DNA of 64,000 bases, from IMG/VR virus record IMGVR_UViG_3300016486_001578; one strand, 5' to 3'. Shown in pieces: positions 3,303 through 63,462 of this stretch (the stretch's first letter is position 1; the number at the start of each line of letters is the position of its first letter). Source of the stretch: a virus (taxonomy: Duplodnaviria; Caudoviricetes). The notes under the pieces are model-generated. The model ran no database searches. It had not been told where the DNA came from and was given only the letters and a program-made list of their open reading frames with translations. Made by a program: the position numbers and the translations under genes.

Positions 3303-3409
3303 TATTTATTCTTTATTTTTTTGACCCATATCTTAATTCTTTAAAAATTTCAAAGGCACACTATTGATACCCGACATGAGTTATGAACAAATTTATATAT
3401 CACTTTCTA

Positions 3410-3862
3410 TCACTCCCCTTTTAAATTCTCTCCACATTTTGGACAAAACTTAAAATTATTATTCATATAACCACATTCTGTGCAAAACTCAGATAGAGTC
3501 GTTTCTTCTTTTTGGAATAATATAACATTTTTATTCGTCTTTTCGTTACTTGATATGGTATATGACCAACCATCTGGAGTAAGCGATGAGAATATCCTTG
3601 TTCTTTTTGCTCCTTGTACATGAGCTAATAATTTTTTTATACTTTTGTATTCTGTGAAAATTCTACAAACCTCTCTTATTGTTCTTATTATAGAAATGGC
3701 CTCATTTTTATTTGCTGAACCATCAATATTGTGAAATAAAAATGCCCATATTTCGTCCTTATTATTTATCTTCGTAAATCTAACTAAATATCTAGTATTT
3801 GATTCATTCGTTCTGAAGGAAAAGGCTCCTTCTGCTTTATTTATTTCTCTAATATTATACAT
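3410..3862 (-). CDS. Hypothetical protein with C-terminal zinc ribbon
   Basis: CTECG...FCPKCG. Confidence 0.7.
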   Translation of the reverse strand: MYNIREINKAEGAFSFRTNESNTRYLVRFTKINNKDEIWAFLFHNIDGSANKNEAISIIRTIREVCRIFTEYKSIKKLLAHVQGAKRTRIFSSLTPDGWSYTISSNEKTNKNVILFQKEETTLSEFCTECGYMNNNFKFCPKCGENLKGE

Positions 3863-9300: not shown

Positions 9301-11450
9301 ATCCGGGATATTGTTATATTGATTATAATTTAGATAATAATAATAAATTAATATTTGGCTCAGACTTAGAGTTTGAATGGAAGAGTATTTTTATAAACAC
9401 ATTTATTGATATTAAGATATATGATGGTATTGATATAATCGAAACGAATAAGCTATTGGTTATTAATAAATATTATGATGATGTTAATGATTTATTTGTT
9501 GTGGAGTTCCATAGGGAAATTAATTATACAAAAGGAGTTGTAATTAATTCAATTGATATAATATCAAGGAGAACATTATTGGAGATAAGTGATGATTTAA
9601 AATATTTAAATAATATACAAAGACCTTATTCACAAAATGAATATGTTGGCGGAACAACACAATCCGGTCAAATTTGGAATGTTTCATATTCTACTTTAGA
9701 GAAGGAATTGAATTTCAAAGTAAACACTGATTCTTACTCTAAGGTATTACTATCTGATAATGATATAGTTAGTTCTATAAGTGGTTTAATATATACAGAT
9801 TTCAGGGGAGACCTTTCGTTAAATATAACACAATTGGAGTCTGAAGTAAACATCGATATATCTAATACTAGTGATTATTTAGGAAAAGTATTGATATCTT
9901 GTTCTGAGGAACATAAATTAACAACCGGAGATGGTGTTGTTTTATCTTTTATTGGTGGAACTGGTTCTTCTGAAGAACTAAACAATCAATATTTTGGTTA
10001 CCAAATTGTAAATTATATAGACCCATATAGTTTTTATATTGATGTTCAATACGGATCCAATATATTTGTTGGTAATGATTATGGTTCAGTTACTTATATA
10101 AATAGGGATCCATTTTTAAACTATCAGCCAGTTGATATAATTGATGTTGGTGTTGATAAAAGAGGAAAAATATCTGTTGAGTTATCTCCAAAAAATACCA
10201 AATTATATGGTGATTTGTATAAGTTGATAGATGTTGATTATGAAAAATATAGATTTAGGCTAGTAGGGAATTTAGATATAGAGACATTGGCTAAAAATTA
10301 TCAATGGATATATGAAGCTGAGATATCAGAAGCTGTTATTGGCACTGATGAAAATGGTTTAATTTGGTATAAAGGAATATGGTCTTGTGGTAGATGGTTT
10401 GGTGGAACTTGGGTATCTGGTAGTTGGCTATCTGGTGATTGGTATGGTGGAACTTGGGATTCTAAGATGATAAAGGATAATTATATATCCGTTGAAGTAG
10501 ATGATAGATATTCAGATAATAAACAATCTATATGGTTTGATGGTAGATGGTTTGATGGTGATTGGAAAAATGGAACTTGGGTATCCGGTAGGTGGTATGA
10601 TGGAAATTGGTATGATGGTATATGGAATGATGGTATATGGAATGATGGTACTTGGAACAATGGTAACTTTACTGGTGGTATATGGGTAGATGGTGATTGG
10701 AAATCAGGTATATTTAGTGCCTTAAATGCTCCTGCTTATTGGTTGGATGGCAATTGGGAATCCGGTGATTTCGAAAATGGTATGTGGTTTAATGGTAATT
10801 TTGGATCCAAAGATAAAGAGTCTAAATTTGGAACAAAATCATATAATAGTAGGGCCGCTATATGGAAATCAGGTAAATGGATCAATGGATCTTTCCATTC
10901 TAGGTTAAATTTAACTGAAGATGGGGATTATGATGTTTCTAATATACATAAGTATTCGATTTGGTATAGTGGTGAGTGGTTTAATGGTGATTTTTATGGC
11001 GGTGTTGCTTATAATATGGACTTTAAATCAGGAACTTGGCATGGTGGTATTTTGGAAGAACTTAATATAATTGGAATGACTGGATCTTTGACGACTAGTG
11101 ATAATTATTTTGTTATAGATAAGATAGCCGAATTTAATACCGGTTATGATATATCTATTATAGATAATCAAATAGGTGGTACTTATTCATCTATGGGTAA
11201 TAATACAACACCTGGTGAGTACAAGGTTTTATATTCAACCGAGGATTTATCAACTAACACTACAAAAATATATGTTGATGAGATAATACCATTTGATGTG
11301 GTGACAGGTTCTTCTACTGGCCTTAAGCTGGTAAGTAAATTTCGAAATTGTAATTGGAAATCCGGTATATGGACTAATGGTATTTACTCCAAAGGAAAGT
11401 GGGAAGGTGGTATATGGTATAATGGGATATTTTCCGGTACTTGGATGTAA
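6342..11450 (+). CDS. Large putative virion (tail/baseplate) protein with BNR/beta-propeller-like segment and C-terminal G-x-W-x-x pentapeptide repeats
   Basis: 1702 aa; ITNDGGIKW Asp-box-like motif; long (W-x-x-G-x)n array from about 10360 to the end. Confidence 0.65.
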   Translation: MWAYSSDYNRWEKKTNNLNLDEFQYFKQEMDSFRFYSKCLSGSSYIPINDTSDIYDILTDQKPKNWYIGNTSSQYSSSQIPNEYAENIIGTSSEYYKKYLPEYGLTLKNLFTPERIIKDSIDNFIYVDLATNEQLSDLYDEVINRKIDGVRLFEGSRVLIKNQKSNVVISSSVDPDDYFISEYTEINTVGTNTEYEYYNEDNGIYIYSDNILVRESDLDIYENCVRFSVCVKMGTNNAGKQFHLSRLLNGYYPNTLENNPILFKEKKNWVIRNKVDYNNLFDINYYGTLKHGTQSYELGGITYSIPERTISIGEFGVIINNQSSYSNIIRNKYKVNLRSIGQTDAYYWIVGDDGTLLRVRKHDFNIENIEVDCKCPRKNVTTNLRSVSFFNNLNGVVVGDLNTILITNDGGIKWERHLISAFDAFYYNKVYFNDINNFYIGGNNGVFIHFKKDINNWTAYKRRISKFIDDEDEFLLVDNINDILKTDVDTWSPYYQFFTQSTSTNKELLFLVTDNNNIILHDIDNSIPFHTDFMYLEMDDIDYGDIKTIEKRFGEDKFYFTGYDKINEESGIFSFQLSNFDSIGFGNSFSNRIYSTFSAYFESDSYPNDIFDYKGDELILSGNNSMLLSSTYSATFSFSNIDDELESRLRSKLLFLDYDVASKLNFFTDEGEYRLPSSVEFGFTQSINNYFGFAPIVHPSESPSFLTQSEINWWEYWRDSESTFEYYSYPQQMTDATKVLISSYFSTTDSDIDEMVINTISKNSSDILNLAPTILDAGHSRFNGLLSSPISSPIIDYDMYLYDYLMVIRTNATNNLVAEVGDMIRLESDEVMDNFLVNKKITLGANSYIYLFSEFSDGVINSLVNSSNIVVKNLNKFSDMIELEYRFNLHPISNGYDLYVDDQDFVEISAKFNNLTSYYNLGTQIYGNLGTQSMVYKDRFLKFGYKPTYNLLDYLEGINDSLINAKFSKNKEFLSMPIYNNIPVGSNPGYCYIDYNLDNNNKLIFGSDLEFEWKSIFINTFIDIKIYDGIDIIETNKLLVINKYYDDVNDLFVVEFHREINYTKGVVINSIDIISRRTLLEISDDLKYLNNIQRPYSQNEYVGGTTQSGQIWNVSYSTLEKELNFKVNTDSYSKVLLSDNDIVSSISGLIYTDFRGDLSLNITQLESEVNIDISNTSDYLGKVLISCSEEHKLTTGDGVVLSFIGGTGSSEELNNQYFGYQIVNYIDPYSFYIDVQYGSNIFVGNDYGSVTYINRDPFLNYQPVDIIDVGVDKRGKISVELSPKNTKLYGDLYKLIDVDYEKYRFRLVGNLDIETLAKNYQWIYEAEISEAVIGTDENGLIWYKGIWSCGRWFGGTWVSGSWLSGDWYGGTWDSKMIKDNYISVEVDDRYSDNKQSIWFDGRWFDGDWKNGTWVSGRWYDGNWYDGIWNDGIWNDGTWNNGNFTGGIWVDGDWKSGIFSALNAPAYWLDGNWESGDFENGMWFNGNFGSKDKESKFGTKSYNSRAAIWKSGKWINGSFHSRLNLTEDGDYDVSNIHKYSIWYSGEWFNGDFYGGVAYNMDFKSGTWHGGILEELNIIGMTGSLTTSDNYFVIDKIAEFNTGYDISIIDNQIGGTYSSMGNNTTPGEYKVLYSTEDLSTNTTKIYVDEIIPFDVVTGSSTGLKLVSKFRNCNWKSGIWTNGIYSKGKWEGGIWYNGIFSGTWM

Positions 11451-11478
11451 TCCATTTCTATAAAATAATATATATTAT

Positions 11479-11838
11479 ATGATTAAGAAATTTAAGACAT
11501 TTAATGAATCAACAGACATAGTTACTGATAGTAAATATGAGCGGTTATCTAGTGATATAAAAGAAATGATAGAATCTACAATAGAGAATGTTGGGGGTGA
11601 TTATAAAACATTTTTAGATTCTTTCAAGAAGGATCCAGAGGATTATAAAATAGAAGGACTTATAAATGATTCTGATATTTATGATTTCTATCTAAAAAAT
11701 AGAAATGATATTGATGAGATTTTAAATGATATTAAATTTTTTGATGAGATACCAACCGAAAATAATTCATTTGGTTTATATGAATACGTCATAAAGGGAA
11801 CCGAGAGAGCCATACTAGAATTAGTAAATAATCTTTAA
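11479..11838 (+). CDS. Small acidic protein, MIKKFKTFNES N-terminal motif
   Basis: ORF, late motif upstream. Confidence 0.7.
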   Translation: MIKKFKTFNESTDIVTDSKYERLSSDIKEMIESTIENVGGDYKTFLDSFKKDPEDYKIEGLINDSDIYDFYLKNRNDIDEILNDIKFFDEIPTENNSFGLYEYVIKGTERAILELVNNL

Positions 11839-11901
11839 TTCTTATTATTTAGTGAGGTGTGTTTAATAAATATATATAGTATATCAAAATAAATAAACCA
11901 A

Positions 11902-14589
11902 ATGGCAAATACACCACTTTATAAATCTTTAAAAACAAACGGAACAACATTTTACGCTTTTCCTGGCGCGGCAGAGGATATAAGTGCGGCTTACCAAAAT
12001 GAAAACTATAAAATGTACTTTTCTAAGTATGTTTTATTAGATTTACCAACACAAAATACATCAACTGATCCTAAATATTTTGATTTCGATGAATCTTTTA
12101 ATAAATCTTCCAATGCTACTCCGGCTAGTAACTTTAATGAGTCATTAGTAGAATCACTTAGAAATTATATAGCAAACCAAGAGGTCGTTATAAGAGAGTC
12201 TAGATTAAATAATACAGAGTATTATTATAATACAAATGCTCTAGAAACAACAACTGAAAAAATATTTTGGAAATGGTGTAAAAAGCTTAATATAATAGAT
12301 TTCGAACCAGCTATTCCAAGTGATGAATATTTTGATAATTTAGTTGAGTTTGAATCAAAGGATATAAATGATGATGAGTATTTCCCGGAATATTTATGGA
12401 AAGAAAGAGAGGTGGTTGATTGGGCAACATCTTATTATTATCAATCCGGAGAATCTGGATTTTTAACTAATCTAGAGATAGAACTTAGTCAAAACTCAAA
12501 TTATAAAATAGGAGATGTTATTAATATTTATAATGTTGAGAACTCAACAATAATTGATAATGATAGTGGTGATGATATATCCGATATATCATCAGAAGAA
12601 GGAATACAAACAACTATTTTAAAGATAATTGAACAATCAGGCACACAGAACCAGAGAATAGTTGTTGATTTAGAGAGTTATTTAGGTAGAGAATTAGAGA
12701 CAACTGGTCAATCTAGATTAGTTTATAATAGATTAGTTAGATATATCGGTGAGGTAACTGGTATCTCAAATGTACAAGAGGCCAATAGATCATATACCGA
12801 GGTACATGCTCATATACCAGATCATACAGGAGAAACACCGGATATTTTATTTAGAACAATGACTGATGTTAACTATAAACCGAATCTAACATTTCCTATA
12901 ATACCCAGTCAATACCAACCAGAAATTCTTGGTGCTGAATTTTTTAATTCACCAATAGTTAATACACCACAAAATTACCCAGGTTCTTATTTTGGTCAAT
13001 TTGATACTTTAGATTTTACATATAAAACCTCAACCGGTGATCAATTAAGAAGAAGTGGAGATTATTACGGAATAAAGGGCGATACGAATAATATAGAAAT
13101 AGATGGTTCGACTTTAGATGGACTAGGTCTTAATTTTAATACAAGTCATTATGTTAAGATGAATATACCAAATAGGGTTGTTACAAATTTTGACCAATTT
13201 AATGCACTTGAAGTAAATAATGAACCACCAAAAGATTTTGAATTTAATGCAATATTGTGGTACTATACGGTAGAAGATAATAATGGAAATTCTACTAGTA
13301 ACTTATATGGAATATCATTTATCGATAATCCTAATAATAATCCAGTTGATGAAGAAATTGGACTTAGGTTTCCGCTTATTAAGAAATTAGTAACAAATGG
13401 TGAGCAAGATGGTACATCATATGCTTTTAATTTGAGTTTGAACTTTAATATAATAAATGAGAACCCAAATGAATCTTATAACCCAGAAGCTATAAATTCA
13501 CTATTCAGTATGAATTTATTTAATAAAGCTATGTCTAGTTTATCATCAACGAATGATAGTTTCTTAAATACCTTGGCCGAACAATCAACAATAAAAGAAG
13601 AAATAACCAACTTAAAGGGTCTTCTTTATTCACAAACAGACCTAAGTGTTATAAATGCTAAGATTATAAATTTAGAAAGGTTACTGAGGCTATATTCTAC
13701 TAATCAATTAATTGATAGTGGATCAATAAGGGTAAATCAAATAGCCGGTAATCCACCATCTATCTCACTTACTAGTATAGATACTGATTATTTTAGAGTA
13801 GATAACTTAAAAACTAGTGATTTGTATAATTCACAAGGAATAATTCCATTAAATTTAACGGTGCCTACTAATAAAAGTTTTTTAATAAATATATCAAACG
13901 ATGATAATATAGATTTAGAATTACAAGATGGAGATAAATTAACTATAATACTTGATAATGATTTGAGTATAAACCAATCAATGGATATAAACATAACGGG
14001 TAGTGTTGATTCTTCTGAAAATAAAAGATTAGATATATATATGGTTAGCGATGCAGGATCTTTGGATGAGACACAATCAGAGGTCTTATTACTGGGTAAT
14101 ATTGATCTTCCTGTTTTTTATAATACAAATACGCAATTACCAAATCCAGCATATCTATGGAAAGATTTCAAATTTGAAATAGATTTTGATGAGCAGATAT
14201 ATTTGGATTCATCTAATAAATTAAAAATACCACTTAGTGGAAATACTTATTTATTGAATAACTCATTAAATGATGGTGATGTCCTTTATTTGAATAACCT
14301 ATTCCTTGGTACATCATCTGTTTATGACTTTTCTGGACAATATACCATAGACTCTATTGAGGGTCTTACAAGCTCTTATATAACTCTTGATATATCAAAT
14401 AATTTAGATTTTGTTACTACATATGAAAATGAGACCTTTCCTTATGTTATACACGAATCATCATATACTATATTATCAAATAAACCATACTTTTCTTTAA
14501 ATAAAGGATTGAATGTGAAAGTTACAAGAGTATCGAATTCCGCTGAGCTAAAAGATAGATATAAACTAGATACGAATGAAATAACCTAA
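11902..14589 (+). CDS. Putative virion structural protein
   Basis: 895-aa N/S/T-rich ORF with central coiled coil, in the late-motif cluster; function inferred. Confidence 0.55.
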   Translation: MANTPLYKSLKTNGTTFYAFPGAAEDISAAYQNENYKMYFSKYVLLDLPTQNTSTDPKYFDFDESFNKSSNATPASNFNESLVESLRNYIANQEVVIRESRLNNTEYYYNTNALETTTEKIFWKWCKKLNIIDFEPAIPSDEYFDNLVEFESKDINDDEYFPEYLWKEREVVDWATSYYYQSGESGFLTNLEIELSQNSNYKIGDVINIYNVENSTIIDNDSGDDISDISSEEGIQTTILKIIEQSGTQNQRIVVDLESYLGRELETTGQSRLVYNRLVRYIGEVTGISNVQEANRSYTEVHAHIPDHTGETPDILFRTMTDVNYKPNLTFPIIPSQYQPEILGAEFFNSPIVNTPQNYPGSYFGQFDTLDFTYKTSTGDQLRRSGDYYGIKGDTNNIEIDGSTLDGLGLNFNTSHYVKMNIPNRVVTNFDQFNALEVNNEPPKDFEFNAILWYYTVEDNNGNSTSNLYGISFIDNPNNNPVDEEIGLRFPLIKKLVTNGEQDGTSYAFNLSLNFNIINENPNESYNPEAINSLFSMNLFNKAMSSLSSTNDSFLNTLAEQSTIKEEITNLKGLLYSQTDLSVINAKIINLERLLRLYSTNQLIDSGSIRVNQIAGNPPSISLTSIDTDYFRVDNLKTSDLYNSQGIIPLNLTVPTNKSFLINISNDDNIDLELQDGDKLTIILDNDLSINQSMDINITGSVDSSENKRLDIYMVSDAGSLDETQSEVLLLGNIDLPVFYNTNTQLPNPAYLWKDFKFEIDFDEQIYLDSSNKLKIPLSGNTYLLNNSLNDGDVLYLNNLFLGTSSVYDFSGQYTIDSIEGLTSSYITLDISNNLDFVTTYENETFPYVIHESSYTILSNKPYFSLNKGLNVKVTRVSNSAELKDRYKLDTNEIT

Positions 14590-59893: not shown

Positions 59894-59919
59894 TAAAAAC
59901 TTCCTTATATTTACATTAC

Positions 59920-60005
59920 AATAGTAGGTAAGTCCTGTTAAAGTGTGGTTGTGAGACATCTACCATAAATATATTTTGAATATATCACTCATAGGATCTA
60001 CTATT
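59920..60005 (+). ncRNA. Candidate structured small RNA
   Basis: AATAGTAGGT/ATCTACTATT, CCTGT/ATAGG and AGTG/CACT nested stems enclosing two hairpins. Confidence 0.4.
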
Positions 60006-60118
60006 TTTAAAATAAATTGAATTAAATTTTGATAATACAAAAACTTATATTACATTTGTAGTATAATAATAACAAAAAAGACAAAAAGAAAGAATTAACT
60101 TTTAATATATAAGAAACA

Positions 60119-60232
60119 ATGAGAGCAATTAACAAACATAAGCATTTTAGTAAGAAGTCATTTTTCTGGTTTAGAAACCAGGGTTCGGCAACAGATGCGT
60201 ATTGCTCTAATTTAAGTAAAACAGGAATGTAA
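60119..60232 (+). CDS. Leader peptide 1 (K/H/F/W-rich), MRAINKHKHFSKKSFFWFRNQGSATDAYCSNLSKTGM
   Basis: 37-aa ORF between promoter motifs and terminator; 11 of codons 6-18 are K/H/F/W. Confidence 0.85.
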   Translation: MRAINKHKHFSKKSFFWFRNQGSATDAYCSNLSKTGM

Positions 60233-60256
60233 ATATTTAAAATAGATATACAAATT

Positions 60257-60294
60257 AAACCCGGACAAATAAAATTGTCCGGGTTTTTTATTTT
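60257..60294 (+). terminator. Attenuator terminator before tRNA array 1
   Basis: AAACCCGGACAA-ATAAAA-TTGTCCGGGTTT plus T-tract. Confidence 0.9.
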
Positions 60295-60299
60295 AACTT

Positions 60300-60372
60300 A
60301 GACCCGTAGCTCAATCGGCAGAGCACCTGACTTTTAATCAGGGGGTAGTGGGATCGTAACCCACCGGGTCTA
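60300..60372 (+). tRNA. tRNA-Lys(TTT)
   Basis: Full cloverleaf; anticodon arm CCTGA-CTTTTAA-TCAGG; T-loop ATCGTAA. Confidence 0.92.
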
Positions 60373-60388
60373 CAAAAAAAAACACAAT

Positions 60389-60507
60389 GGTTGTGTAGCT
60401 CAGTTGGTAAATTGGCTTATCTTTCTTTTTAAAACCCTTTTATCATGAAGAGAGCGGGGGTGTGAAGTACCCTGACATTTGCTCCGGTTCGATTCCGGAC
60501 ATGACCA
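60389..60507 (+). tRNA. Atypical tRNA-Phe(GAA)-like gene with 42-nt insertion in the D-loop
   Basis: Acceptor GGTTGTG/CATGACC, D-stem GCTC/GAGC, anticodon arm GGGGT-GTGAAGT-ACCCT, T-arm TCCGG-TTCGATT-CCGGA. Confidence 0.65.
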
Positions 60508-60518
60508 CAAAAATATAC

Positions 60519-60591
60519 ACGGGCGTAGCTCAGCTGGTAGAGCAGTGGTCTCCAAAACCAAAGGTCGTAGGTTCGATCCCTACCGTTCGTG
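60519..60591 (+). tRNA. tRNA-Trp(CCA)
   Basis: Cloverleaf, loop CTCCAAA. Confidence 0.9.
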
Positions 60592-60601
60592 CAAAATATA
60601 T

Positions 60602-60675
60602 GGTGATTGTAGCTCAATTGGTAGAGCGCTCGATTGTGATTCGAGAGGCAGCGGGATCGTAACCCGTCTTTCACC
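60602..60675 (+). tRNA. tRNA-His(GTG)
   Basis: G-1, C discriminator, loop TTGTGAT; two T-T mismatches in the acceptor stem. Confidence 0.85.
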
Positions 60676-60682
60676 CAAATAT

Positions 60683-60755
60683 GGAACCTTGGCAGATTAG
60701 GTAATTGCGCCGGATTGAAGATCCGGATGACTCGGATCGTTACCGGGAGGTTCCA
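60683..60755 (+). tRNA. tRNA-Phe(GAA)
   Basis: Cloverleaf, CCGGA-TTGAAGA-TCCGG. Confidence 0.9.
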
Positions 60756-60765
60756 CAAAAAAAAT

Positions 60766-60837
60766 ACGTCTGTGGTGTAGTTGGTAACATTTTAGTCTCC
60801 AAAACTAAAGTCTTCGGTTCGAGCCCGAACAGGCGTG
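60766..60837 (+). tRNA. tRNA-Trp(CCA)
   Basis: Cloverleaf, TTAGT-CTCCAAA-ACTAA. Confidence 0.9.
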
Positions 60838-60859
60838 CTATTTAATAATAATAAAAAAT

Positions 60860-60905
60860 ACGTGAGTGAGCGTAGGTTAAGTCGGCAGGATTCCAACCCC
60901 TCGCC
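60860..60905 (+). pseudogene. Possible 5' fragment of a tRNA (Trp-like, loop TTCCAAC)
   Basis: Starts ACGTG like the neighbouring Trp tRNAs; no T-arm or 3' acceptor strand. Confidence 0.3.
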
Positions 60906-60910
60906 GTTAG

Positions 60911-61108
60911 AGTTTTGAAAATAATAAACACTCTATTGATACCAAAAATAAAATGAGCGAAAAGGCCAAATTAAGAATTGGTGAAAAAAATTCATCATTT
61001 GGAACTTGTTGGATAACTAAAAATGGTGTTAATAAGAAAATAAAAAAAGAATTAATTCAAACATACAAAAAGGATGGTTGGATAAAAGGTAGAATAATAA
61101 ATAAATAA
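60911..61108 (+). pseudogene. Remnant of a Seg-like homing endonuclease (NUMOD3 plus C-terminal DNA-binding part)
   Basis: KHSIDTKNKMSEK...GEKNSSFGTCWIT...GWIKGR*; no catalytic N-terminus. Confidence 0.7.
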
Positions 61109-61114
61109 ATAATT

Positions 61115-61188
61115 GCGCTTGTAACTCAGTTGGTAGAGTACCTGGCTTTTAACCAGGGAGTCGTCGGGTTCGAGTCCCACCGGGCGCA
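61115..61188 (+). tRNA. tRNA-Lys(TTT)
   Basis: Cloverleaf CCTGG-CTTTTAA-CCAGG; one bulged C in the T-stem. Confidence 0.88.
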
Positions 61189-61261
61189 CAAAAATTATGT
61201 GTTTGAACTTACAGTTTGAGATTTACACAGTACCTAAAATCTAAGTAAACTGGAGAAATAT

Positions 61262-61340
61262 ACGGGTATCGTCTAAGCAAAGACACTTCGTACAAGCGAA
61301 GAAATAGGATGCATTTTAGGTTCAAGTCCCCTCGCCCGTG
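61262..61340 (+). other. Degenerate tRNA-like element
   Basis: ACGGGT/GCCCGT ends, GTCT/AGAC stem, CTTCG/CGAAG stem with 6-nt loop, GGTTCAAGTCC. Confidence 0.4.
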
Positions 61341-61373
61341 CTAAAAACAAAATTAACTTTTAATATATAGTAT

Positions 61374-61628
61374 ATGAAACATTTAGAAAAATTTAAAATG
61401 ATAAAGGAAAGTAAGCTATCGGTGTATAAAGATGTTTGGGCTATTATAAAATATGATGATTTTGAAATACATGAAGTATATCTTAAAAAAGAAGAAGCAG
61501 AACTCGATTGTATAAAAAAGAATGAAGAACTAGAAAAACTTAGTCATATTAAACATAGATATGAAGTTAAGTCATTAGATGATGCAATAGATATCATAAA
61601 AGATAGTGTCAGGGGTGATGTTTATTAA
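61374..61628 (+). CDS. Small protein, MKHLEKF...ES N-terminal motif
   Basis: ORF after late motif. Confidence 0.7.
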   Translation: MKHLEKFKMIKESKLSVYKDVWAIIKYDDFEIHEVYLKKEEAELDCIKKNEELEKLSHIKHRYEVKSLDDAIDIIKDSVRGDVY

Positions 61629-61641
61629 AAAATAAAATTAT

Positions 61642-61836
61642 ATGAAACATATAGAAAAATTTAATGAGAATTCCTCTATGAAAACTGAGGAAGAAATAAG
61701 AGAAGAAATAGCCAATTCTATTGGATATGACCTTAAATATTGGTTGGAAAATTGCACAGCACTTGGTAGAGACGCCTATGGCGCATATATCGATAAGGCA
61801 ATTAAATCTATTCAGAATAAAATAATAAAAGGATAA
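61642..61836 (+). CDS. Small protein, MKHIEKFNEN N-terminal motif
   Basis: ORF. Confidence 0.65.
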   Translation: MKHIEKFNENSSMKTEEEIREEIANSIGYDLKYWLENCTALGRDAYGAYIDKAIKSIQNKIIKG

Positions 61837-61839
61837 AAT

Positions 61840-62151
61840 TTGAAACATCTAAAACCATTCAATGAATCAAAATATAATGATATCGTAGATGATATTTTTT
61901 AGAATTAAAAGACTCTGGTTTTGAAATATGGCACTTAGATGATAAGCATGGACATGAAGTAGTAATAAGAAGAAATTAAAATTATATCTAGTGATGGTGA
62001 AGTGATGATTGATTTGTTTGATTATTTAAGAAACAAAGATTTTGAAAAAATAAAAGTTCTTACTACTACACACCTACATACAAAGAAAGAAGGAAAAAGA
62101 GGAATTATTGATTTGGAAAATTTAAAATATGTAATTATTCAATTTAAATAG
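61840..62151 (+). pseudogene. Small protein (MKHLKPFNES, TTG start) with two apparent frameshifts
   Basis: Continuous protein-like reading is restored by shifts near 61897 and 61968. Confidence 0.5.
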
Positions 62152-62223
62152 AAAAAAATTAGGAAATAACAAAAACAAGTATTACATTTATAATATATAT
62201 AGTAACAATAAGAAAATAAAACA

Positions 62224-62301
62224 ATGAATAACATAAACAACATATCGAATAGTTCTAGTCGTAGTTCGCTAAAAATTAGTGAGGGTTGTTCGTATTTGTA
62301 A
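62224..62301 (+). CDS. Leader peptide 2 (Ser/Arg), MNNINNISNSSSRSSLKISEGCSYL
   Basis: 25-aa ORF; control stretch TCG AAT AGT TCT AGT CGT AGT TCG. Confidence 0.85.
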   Translation: MNNINNISNSSSRSSLKISEGCSYL

Positions 62302-62325
62302 TATTCGTATAAAAAAGATATTTAT

Positions 62326-62357
62326 AAAGACCCTCTAATTTATTAGAGGGTTTTTTT
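62326..62357 (+). terminator. Attenuator terminator before tRNA array 2
   Basis: AAAGACCCTCTAA-TTTA-TTAGAGGGTTTTTTT. Confidence 0.9.
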
Positions 62358-62365
62358 GTTTTTAT

Positions 62366-62442
62366 GCCTTAGTATCAGCACCGAATACGAATCGGTAGTC
62401 TTGTAATGGATGAAAATGTGGGTTCGACTCCTACCTAAGGTT
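62366..62442 (+). tRNA. D-armless tRNA-Arg(ACG)-like RNA
   Basis: Acceptor GCCTTAG/CTAAGGT, 7-nt linker in place of the D-arm, ACCGA-ATACGAA-TCGGT, 21-nt variable region, T-arm GTGGG-TTCGACT-CCTAC. Confidence 0.65.
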
Positions 62443-62449
62443 CAAGTTA

Positions 62450-62641
62450 GTTAAACGTAAGGATAACTCTAAAATATGTAACGATTGTAGGTCGATTAAT
62501 AATAGGAAAGTTAAAAGACCATCATATGAAGAATTAAAAGAAGAAATTAAAATATCAAATTATACAAAGATGGGTAAAAAATATGGAGTTAGTGATGTCT
62601 CTATAAAAAAATGGATTAAAAATTATGAAAAAATGAAATAA
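62450..62641 (+). pseudogene. Remnant of an HNH-type homing endonuclease C-terminus (CxxC plus HTH)
   Basis: CNDC...RKVKRPSYEEL...GKKYGVSDVSIKKW; no start codon. Confidence 0.6.
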
Positions 62642-62660
62642 AATTAGTCACAAAAAAATT

Positions 62661-62748
62661 GGAAATGAAAGCAGTGCCATGGAGGTGCGACTAGTCTTGA
62701 AAACTAGGTCTCGTTAAATCGGGTGGGGGTCGGTTCCTCTCATTTCCG
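62661..62748 (+). tRNA. tRNA-Ser(TGA), 8/4 type
   Basis: GGAAATGA/TCATTTCC, CTAGT-CTTGAAA-ACTAG, long variable arm. Confidence 0.8.
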
Positions 62749-62759
62749 CAAATAAATAA

Positions 62760-62843
62760 GGAAGAGTAATTAAACAGGTGTTTGACCTCGTTTTGAAAAC
62801 GAGTGGTACTTTACGGTATGGGGATCGGGACCTCACTCTTCCG
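62760..62843 (+). tRNA. tRNA-Ser(TGA), 8/4-compatible
   Basis: GGAAGAGT/ACTCTTCC, D-arm TTAAAC-AGGT-GTTTGA, CTCGT-TTTGAAA-ACGAG. Confidence 0.82.
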
Positions 62844-62848
62844 CACAT

Positions 62849-62932
62849 AGAGAGTAATCTAGTCTGGTGACTAGGGCCGCCTGCTAAGCGTGTCGCACCT
62901 TCGGGTGTGGGGTTCAATTCCTCTACTCTCTG
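62849..62932 (+). tRNA. tRNA-Ser(GCT), 8/4 type
   Basis: AGAGAGTA/TACTCTCT, D-arm CTAGTC-TGGT-GACTAG, loop CTGCTAA, TTCG-capped variable arm. Confidence 0.82.
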
Positions 62933-62936
62933 CTAT

Positions 62937-63027
62937 GGAAGTTATGGTGTATTAGGTAATACTTCTTGTTTGGAAAACAAGAACCCGTGTAATGGCGGGC
63001 CCGTTTCGACTACGGTGACTTCCTCCA
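62937..63027 (+). tRNA. tRNA-Ser(GGA), 8/4 type, CCA encoded
   Basis: GGAAGTTA/TGACTTCC, T-stem CCGT/ACGG, CTTGT-TTGGAAA-ACAAG. Confidence 0.82.
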
Positions 63028-63109
63028 AATTAGAGGCTCATGAGGGCTTGTTTTCATTTCTATTTATGGGACAATATCAGATATAAAAAGAAAAAGAAAA
63101 TAAATACAT

Positions 63110-63199
63110 AGAAGTGTACTCAAATTGGTAAAGAGGGCAGTTTGCTAAACTGTTAGGCCGGTTAATAACTGGTGCGGGGTTCGAACCCCTCCATTTCTG
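63110..63199 (+). tRNA. tRNA-Ser(GCT), canonical type
   Basis: AGAAGTG/CATTTCT, GCAGT-TTGCTAA-ACTGT, long variable arm. Confidence 0.88.
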
Positions 63200-63234
63200 C
63201 TTATTTTTAAATATTTTTCCTTATCTTTAATGAT

Positions 63235-63462
63235 ATGAAGAGAGTTAAATGTATAAAGAACTTTTATAAAAGTACTTACGGAGATAAAATATTATTTGAA
63301 GATGGTAAAGAATATTACCAATTAACTGATTTTGTATCAGATGGATTAAAGTTTGTTTGTATAAAATCACCTCATATGTTGGGTAAGGGCATTGTTGAAT
63401 TTGCTTTGGTTGAAAAAACTGATACATATTTATTATTTAAAGATTACTTTGTAAGTATCTAA
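63235..63462 (+). CDS. Hypothetical protein
   Basis: 75-aa ORF. Confidence 0.6.
   Translation: MKRVKCIKNFYKSTYGDKILFEDGKEYYQLTDFVSDGLKFVCIKSPHMLGKGIVEFALVEKTDTYLLFKDYFVSI

Follow-up and report, generated by a model that had tools for sequence, protein, structure and literature searches.

Organization of the Locus

Near the end of the analysed stretch of 64,000 nucleotides (hereafter the window; IMG/VR record IMGVR_UViG_3300016486_001578, a virus of the Caudoviricetes, Duplodnaviria), the forward strand carries a unit in which a promoter-like site, a short leader open reading frame (ORF), an intrinsic terminator, and a series of tRNA genes follow one another in that order. The promoter-like block, TTAGGAAATAACAAAAACAA...TTACATTTATAATATATA (62158-62196), lies upstream of the leader, where a sigma-70-like match (ATAACA-17-TATAAT, 62166-62194) reaches a score of 10/12 and represents a predicted promoter only. 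Most of the homologous Ser/Arg leaders observed are preceded by a conserved copy of this block, whereas at three loci (L016, L019, and L220) the Ser/Arg leader directly follows a tRNA. A Bacteroidota-type -7 motif (TTAnATTTGTA, at most one mismatch) is not enriched in the window, with 36 occurrences found against 36.8 expected.

The leader ORF (62224-62301) begins with an ATG at 62224, ends with a TAA at 62299-62301, and comprises 25 codons. It is followed by an intrinsic terminator (62326-62355) of 13 bp and a 4-nt loop, consisting of a 5' arm (62326-62338), the loop (62339-62342), and a 3' arm (62343-62355), with a folding energy of -15.3 kcal/mol. The adjoining T-tract, T7-G-T5 (62351-62364), ends 1 nt ahead of the first tRNA-like gene, so that an intrinsic terminator, which in attenuators of the leader-peptide class separates the leader from the regulated genes, occupies exactly that place here (62326-62364, with the cargo starting at 62366).

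The cargo begins with a non-canonical element resembling tRNA-Arg(ACG) (62366-62442), which scores 24.4 bits with the Rfam tRNA model against a cut-off of 29, receives no ARAGORN call, and has an anticodon loop, ATACGAA, in which the ACG anticodon was read by eye; in most of the relatives that are readable at this position, a tRNA-Arg(ACG) is called. Five tRNA-Ser genes, all on the forward strand and detected by ARAGORN with a relaxed threshold, complete the block, namely tRNA-Ser(TGA) at 62661-62749 (ARAGORN -ps90; a sub-threshold 31.6 bits with the Rfam tRNA-Sec model), a second tRNA-Ser(TGA) at 62760-62844, tRNA-Ser(GCT) at 62848-62933 (ARAGORN -ps80; Rfam clan match of 48.8 bits), tRNA-Ser(GGA) at 62937-63027, and a second tRNA-Ser(GCT) at 63110-63200 (Rfam 41.7 bits). 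A weak terminator-like hairpin of 6 bp (63034-63049), with no leader ORF, is located between tRNA-Ser(GGA) and the last tRNA-Ser(GCT). At the gathering threshold, Rfam returned tRNAs only across the whole window, and a cmscan search of 59900-63300 at E <= 1 returned tRNA-clan matches together with weak matches to four unrelated families, with no amino-acid-operon leader among them.

A sister unit of the same layout lies farther upstream, where a leader ORF rich in Lys, His, Phe, and Trp codons (60119-60232) and a terminator with a 12-bp stem (60257-60286) together span 60119-60286 on the forward strand and precede tRNAs for Lys, Phe, Trp, His, Phe, Trp, and Lys, in that order. Within this block, a 119-nt tRNA-Phe(GAA)-like gene (60389-60507) scores 37.2 bits in Rfam and is called by ARAGORN only when an intron-like insert is allowed. 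The region between the two tRNA blocks (61374-62151) contains a tandem family of small ORFs, all starting with MKH(L/I)EKF or MKHLKPF, the third copy of which (from 61840) ends early, after 20 codons; Pfam has no match in the first member of the family. Small ORFs located between tRNAs (60953-61108 and 62453-62641) were also considered as remnants of homing endonucleases, an identification that is unsupported, as Pfam finds no match in them.

The window has a G+C content of 28%, and most of its large ORFs belong to no Pfam family, the exceptions being an SbcC-like ATPase, an NAD-dependent ligase, and an S1-domain protein. Among GenBank phages, its relatives at the DNA level are confined to the tRNA regions of huge, uncultured phages 630-735 kb in size (LR756502.1 and LR745206.1); in both records the two tRNA blocks recur, together with leaders and terminators homologous to those of the window. 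DNA nearly identical to the window is present in several salt-lake metagenomes; four salt-lake or other metagenome contig sets are so similar that the attenuator region differs solely by a T-tract length variant in one metagenome strain, and they therefore provide no covariation at the population level.

Control Codons of the Leader ORF

The distinguishing characteristic of the leader is a run of regulatory codons at codons 8-15, TCG AAT AGT TCT AGT CGT AGT TCG (62245-62268). The window contains 1323 ORFs of 10 or more codons, and a ranking of these by Ser/Arg density placed this leader alone at the top, with seven Ser/Arg codons among eight consecutive ones against six for the runner-up. A short ORF with a conserved cluster of regulatory codons, which is the first hallmark of leader-peptide attenuators, is thus present at this locus. 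The Ser and Arg codons of the run can each be read by a downstream anticodon (UGA, GCU, GGA, or ACG) under the standard wobble rules.

The choice among synonymous codons departs from the usage of the phage. In its long ORFs, CGT accounts for 2% of Arg codons and all CGN codons together for 5%, and TCG accounts for 4.3% of Ser codons, compared with three of the eight Ser codons of the leader (P = 0.004), while TCA, the commonest Ser codon of the phage (37%), is missing from the leader. A preliminary description of this locus, made from the nucleotide letters, had proposed a Ser/Arg sensor covering the codon types served by the downstream tRNAs and had listed the control codons as TCG, AGT, TCT, AGT, CGT, AGT, and TCG. 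The list is exact, with every coordinate right, and the proposed correspondence between codons and cargo is borne out by the density ranking and by the readability of all of these codons. Of the anticodons that it named downstream (TGA twice, GCT twice, GGA, and ACG), the five serine anticodons are recovered by ARAGORN, and the ACG anticodon belongs to the sub-threshold element read by eye.

Terminator, Antiterminator, and Ribosome Position

Studies of the leader RNA can be organized around four regions, of which regions 3 and 4 are the two arms of the terminator. Region 2, the putative 5' strand of the antiterminator, has the sequence AATTAG-TG-AGGGTTG (62274-62288) and lies within the ORF, 11 nt before the stop codon. 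Its core, GAGGGTT (62281-62287), can pair with GACCCTC (62329-62335) in the 5' arm of the terminator, and this 2:3 pairing is extended by AATTAG/CTAATT across a 2-nt bulge, reaching 62341. The core duplex between the leader and the terminator 5' arm has an energy of -11.7 kcal/mol, lower than expected from shuffled leaders (z = -2.3, p = 0.023), and the full 2:3 structure in the window reaches -13.4 kcal/mol.

The 13 relatives with Ser/Arg leaders use a different register, in which an 8-bp antiterminator helix is formed between AG(G/A)TTCGA in the leader and TCGAA(C/T)(C/T)T, the latter covering the upper end of the 5' arm together with the loop. In these relatives the helix is 92.9% paired, and four of its eight pairs have changed on both sides, for example from G-C to A-U and from U-A to C-G; none of 500 shuffles reaches four compensatory pairs out of eight, and pairing is at most 53% when the partner columns are slid. 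In the window, the upper stem reads CTCTAA/TTAGAG instead of CTCGAA/TTTGAG, a change that has abolished this 8-bp register. The shifted 2:3 pairing of the window looks like a rebuilt antiterminator, as judged by pairing energy and shuffled controls in a single sequence without covariation. An antiterminator that is mutually exclusive with the terminator through its 5' arm, a further hallmark of the class, can consequently be recognized here, with the support from covariation coming from the register of the relatives only.

The covarying helix also bears on a different role for the leader, in which it is translated but the position of the ribosome governs the processing or stability of the precursor, or access by Rho, and the hairpin mainly marks an RNA end. 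Such a role would suit the end of the T-tract 1 nt before the first tRNA-like gene, since processing by RNase P is needed there. The hairpin and its T-tract nevertheless form a canonical intrinsic terminator, and a covarying helix that competes for the 5' arm is expected under attenuation and needless for a pure processing signal, so that this role is regarded as improbable.

A candidate 1:2 hairpin (anti-antiterminator), TTCGCTAA-AAA-TTAGTGAG (62265-62283), is part of the minimum-energy fold. It is weak, at -5.6 kcal/mol, and the homologous hairpin is 88% paired in the relatives, without covariation.

The influence of the ribosome on these alternatives was modelled by constrained folding of a nascent transcript ending at the terminator loop, in which the ribosome masked 28 nt. 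In the model of the window, placing the A-site at codons 8-15 leaves 10-13 of the 13 bases of the terminator 5' arm paired upstream, while with the A-site at codon 18 through the stop codon only 0-4 of these bases are predicted to be paired, and the full transcript then folds the terminator. The same behavior is predicted for all six homologs modelled (the window and five relatives), in which 8-13 nt of the 5' arm are sequestered when the ribosome stalls at codons 8-15, the switch falls at about codons 16-18, just past the Ser/Arg run, and later positions free most or all of the 5' arm. In the model, therefore, the leader behaves as expected of the attenuator class, in which the antiterminator strand is exposed when the ribosome stalls at the control codons and covered once the ribosome has come to the end of the ORF. 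Equilibrium folds without a ribosome favor the 2:3 (read-through) structure in five of the six homologs, and since models without a ribosome mostly give the antiterminator, termination seems to require fast translation of the leader.

These results refine the structural part of the preliminary description. The segment ATTAG-TG-AGGGTT, which it had placed at 62275-62287 as a near copy of the terminator 3' arm, is located exactly there, and the corresponding 3'-arm segment is ATTAGAGGGTT (62342-62352). Its suggestion that this segment sequesters the 5' arm agrees with the pairing energy (p about 0.02), with the qualification that the pairing is lineage-specific and that the relatives use another, 8-bp register. 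The 1:2 hairpin that it had drawn is present at 62265-62283 but is weak and does not covary. The classical 1:2/2:3/3:4 geometry is accordingly supported for the competition between 2:3 and the terminator, and its superattenuated state, with the 1:2 hairpin formed, is a putative one, as the untranslated leader is predicted to form 2:3 and read through. Covariation among homologous leaders, named there as a check, was found for the relatives' 8-bp 2:3 helix and for neither the window register nor the 1:2 hairpin.

Conservation of the Ser/Arg Leader

Pattern scans of IMG/VR and JGI metagenomes yielded 13 further distinct Ser/Arg leaders from huge phages and metagenomes; one 15-nt scan pattern was too generic, and nearly all of its 113 loci are chance matches. 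The ORF is intact in all 14 leaders, whose members are mutually related, so that the counts do not represent independent events. Loss of the ORF among relatives, which the earlier proposal had named as an observation that would contradict it, is thus not the case. The ORFs have 24, 25, or 34 codons, with length differences of 3 and 30 nt, and the terminator and the run of Ser and CGN-Arg codons are kept throughout. AGT is combined with TCN Ser codons in each of the 14 leaders, and CGN codons constitute 29 of their 34 Arg codons, compared with 5% in phage genes. The retention of Ser across the TCN and AGY codon boxes argues for selection on decoding.

The pattern of conservation also helps in assessing whether the leader RNA might remain untranslated, with its codon run binding tRNA anticodons directly in the manner of a T-box with many specifiers. 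Such binding would account for the match between leader codons and downstream anticodons. Several observations point instead to translation: the control codons all lie in one frame running from ATG to stop, the distance between the stop codon and region 2 is constant, the lengths of insertions and deletions are divisible by three, and Ser persists across its two codon boxes. Moreover, no T-box riboswitch or other cis-regulatory family is matched in Rfam, either at the gathering threshold or at E <= 1, and direct binding of this kind is considered very improbable.

In one of the relatives (L001, LR756502.1), a 239-aa fragment of a class I tRNA synthetase of the Trp/Tyr type (11384-12103; PF00579, E = 4e-38) separates the His/Phe/Trp/Lys tRNA block from the Ser/Arg attenuator.

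Leader Classes and Their tRNA Cargo

The Ser/Arg leader is one of several types. The leader ORF of the sister unit (60119-60232) has the top density of Lys, His, Phe, and Trp codons among the 1323 ORFs of the window (11 of 13 codons, with a runner-up of 8), and its antiterminator candidate, ACCAGGGTTC x AAACCCGGA, is weaker (z = -1.0, p = 0.15). A survey of the tRNA regions of five related phage records and of other contigs, in which a unit was defined by a strong terminator with a tRNA within 60 nt, identified 29 units, each of which has a small ATG-initiated ORF ending 15-40 nt ahead of the stem, with a composition that mirrors the cargo. For example, a leader containing ...THKHFSKSSKWF... 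precedes tRNAs for Phe, His, Phe, Trp, and Lys; ...YYYEAYEE... precedes Glu and Tyr; ...ISIAVIGNGAGA... precedes Ile(tat), Gly, and Ala; ...NPQPQDQD... precedes Gln, Pro, and Asp; ...FQQQQQQQ... precedes three or four Gln tRNAs; and ...NLNMTMNLTLNVVNITLCNIR... precedes Asn, Arg(tct), Leu, Val, Ile(gat), Thr, and Met. The classes of leader are therefore K/H/F/W, S/R, E/Y, I/G/A, P/D/Q, Q, and N/L/M/T/V/I/R, to which the locus L206 and the phage phi4:1, described below, add two.

The correspondence was quantified by scoring the 150 upstream nt of each unit, read in all three frames, for every set of cargo. Over the 29 units, which fall into about seven homologous classes and hence provide an independent count nearer to seven than to 29, the leader-cargo match sums to 128, compared with 55 +/- 8 after permutation, and none of 20000 permutations reaches 128. 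Synonymous codons follow the anticodons as well: for Ile, ATA is used before Ile(tat) and ATT before Ile(gat), and for Arg, AGA is used before Arg(tct) and CGN before Arg(acg). Pairing between the leader and the terminator 5' arm is better than that of shuffled leaders in 21 of the 29 units (p <= 0.05; median z = -2.6).

As an outside comparison, 185 unrelated IMG/VR loci with 664 tRNAs contain only six units in which a terminator is followed by a tRNA, and the two best-scoring of these are further examples of the design, one being another Ser/Arg leader and the other a new class with the leader FLHQPQRLHL. The latter (L206, 1091-1217; IMGVR_UViG_3300013102_000007) precedes tRNAs for Pro, Gln, His, Arg(acg), and Leu(tag); its codons are reported as C-starting only (CAT CAG CCG CAA CGT CTG CAC TTG), which together with the cargo indicates a module organized by codon box.

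These surveys also bear on a further account of the locus, namely, a chance small ORF beside the ordinary terminator of an upstream transcription unit. AT-rich DNA is rich in small ORFs, as the 1323 in the window illustrate, and a terminator in front of tRNA genes is in itself nothing unusual. Such an account is effectively refuted by the first rank of both leader ORFs among 1323, by the permutation result, by the persistence of the ORF and its Ser/Arg run in 14 homologs from different environments, and by the rarity of terminator-then-tRNA units in the unrelated loci, where the two top scorers are of the same kind.

Nested arrangements were also observed. In L008 (3959-5046) and L012 (3704-4753), a Pro/Asp/Gln leader gates Pro and Asp tRNAs, and a second, poly-Gln leader with its own terminator, placed inside the same array, gates the Gln tRNAs.

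The same design occurs in a cultured phage, phi4:1 of Cellulophaga baltica (L221, NC_021788.1; regions 2442-2563 and 3366-3546). An unannotated leader, MKIQRLHLQELEQP..., is followed there by a terminator and tRNAs for Pro, Glu, Gln, His, Leu, Leu, and Arg(acg). The product gp075, annotated as a "hypothetical protein", resembles a leader for the following tRNA block, which comprises Ala, Lys, Ile, Gly, Met, Asp, Thr, Val, Arg, and Tyr tRNAs.

Proposed Mechanism and the Nature of the Signal

On the basis of its sequence and of the folding models, the locus is probably a transcription attenuator of the ribosome-mediated (leader-peptide) type, controlling the expression of a block of phage tRNA genes. 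In the proposed mechanism, transcription would begin about 25 nt upstream of the 25-codon leader, and translation would accompany the moving RNA polymerase. Quick decoding of the Ser codons (TCG, AGT, and TCT) and of CGT, a rare Arg codon, would bring the ribosome to codon 17 or later, or to the stop codon. In these positions it would cover region 2 (62274-62288), the terminator (62326-62355) would fold, and transcription would stop just before the tRNA genes. Slow decoding of any of the control codons would stall the ribosome at codons 8-15, leaving region 2 free to pair with the 5' arm of the terminator, and once this antiterminator had formed, the polymerase would continue past the terminator site and transcribe the Arg(ACG)-like gene together with the five genes for tRNA-Ser. 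The tRNA products would read the very codons that are sensed, which would place decoding capacity under negative feedback. We infer from the features of the nucleotide sequence both that translation of the leader takes place and that the element actually switches between termination and read-through.

Two signals could operate the same attenuator hardware. The preliminary description favored Ser/Arg amino-acid starvation, sensed through tRNA charging. An uncharged and an absent tRNA are indistinguishable to the mechanism, as both stall the ribosome, and the structural evidence is common to the two signals. Extra tRNA, however, would presumably not relieve a shortage of amino acids, and the preference of the leaders for rare, isoacceptor-specific codons (CGN versus AGA, ATA versus ATT) fits the sensing of tRNA species better, which makes starvation the unlikely signal. 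Decoding capacity, that is, the supply of tRNA, is the more plausible signal, because the regulated genes are themselves tRNAs and because the codon choice is specific to isoacceptors.

Comparison with Known Attenuation Systems

The leaders of enterobacterial amino-acid operons are leader-peptide transcription attenuators, among which those of ilvGMEDA and thr are multivalent. The phage element resembles such leaders (trpL, hisL, pheL, leuL, and thrL) in combining a short leader, a run of regulatory codons, and an intrinsic terminator, in placing within the 3' part of the ORF an antiterminator strand able to compete for the 5' arm of the terminator, and in linking, here according to the folding model, a stalled ribosome to read-through and a ribosome at the stop codon to termination. 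The attenuation mechanism of pheL has been summarized (PMC3082878). Similar to the multivalent ilvGMEDA and thr leaders, the phage leader would sense several amino acids together.

The differences are equally clear. The phage element regulates tRNAs rather than biosynthetic enzymes, so that its product would directly relieve the stall; it is a phage-encoded modular cassette, repeated before each tRNA block; and its codons follow anticodons, not amino acids alone. In contrast to trp and his, its 1:2 hairpin is weak, and the untranslated leader is predicted to read through. Furthermore, it has no sequence or Rfam relationship to the enterobacterial leaders, the His, Trp, Thr, Leu, and Phe leader models being unmatched.

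In E. coli, attenuation of the phenylalanyl-tRNA synthetase operon pheST through the pheM leader represents a chromosomal sensor of a single amino acid. It is comparable to the phage element as a leader-peptide attenuator on a gene of the translation apparatus serving the sensed codon, with the difference that pheST encodes a synthetase and not tRNAs. The T-box riboswitches of Gram-positive bacteria need no translation and bind uncharged tRNA directly by means of a single specifier codon and the conserved T-box sequence. They share with the phage element a terminator/antiterminator switch that reports the state of specific tRNAs and controls the same decoding pathway, whereas the phage leader has no T-box match and has ORF features that suggest translation.

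The E. coli tRNA-Phe genes pheV and pheU were considered as a possible precedent, as their dosage affects pheA attenuation (PMC3082878). They were set aside, because in MG1655 a promoter lies directly upstream of both genes, with no Phe-rich ORF and no terminator. A full-text literature search, with most subscription journals outside its reach, found no account of leader-peptide attenuation of tRNA genes. What appears to be new here is a classical mechanism applied to a new class of regulated genes, the tRNAs, with a new feedback logic and in a phage setting.

Implications for Phage Biology

The reasons why phages carry tRNA genes, and the timing of their use, have been debated for decades, and the current hypotheses have been reviewed (PMC10264068). 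If the proposed mechanism is correct, these tRNAs would be made on demand when their own codons are decoded slowly, and the phage would carry a codon-resolved sensor of the translation capacity of its host. Ribosome-mediated attenuation would then extend from genes for amino-acid biosynthesis and synthetases to tRNA genes, with direct negative feedback.

A bolder interpretation, entertained here as a minority possibility, is that the cassettes form an on-demand circuit for counter-defence or host takeover, sensing the loss of host tRNAs codon by codon and inducing the exact replacements. Host anticodon nucleases or a shutdown of the host by the phage could cause such loss, as could a poor match of the host tRNA pool. 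Under this interpretation, the grouping of tRNAs into modules would reflect those that are lost together, and phage tRNA expression would be inducible rather than constitutive. Compensation by phage tRNAs for host tRNAs depleted by nucleases is a published hypothesis (PMC10264068), while a sensor coupled to the compensating phage tRNAs is unpublished as far as the literature search found.

In practical terms, the order of a mini-ORF, a terminator, and a tRNA array provides a signature for genome annotation, and the leaders yield testable predictions of the codons that limit translation during infection. The presence of the design in a cultured phage-host pair, Cellulophaga baltica and its phage phi4:1, makes the corresponding experiments possible.
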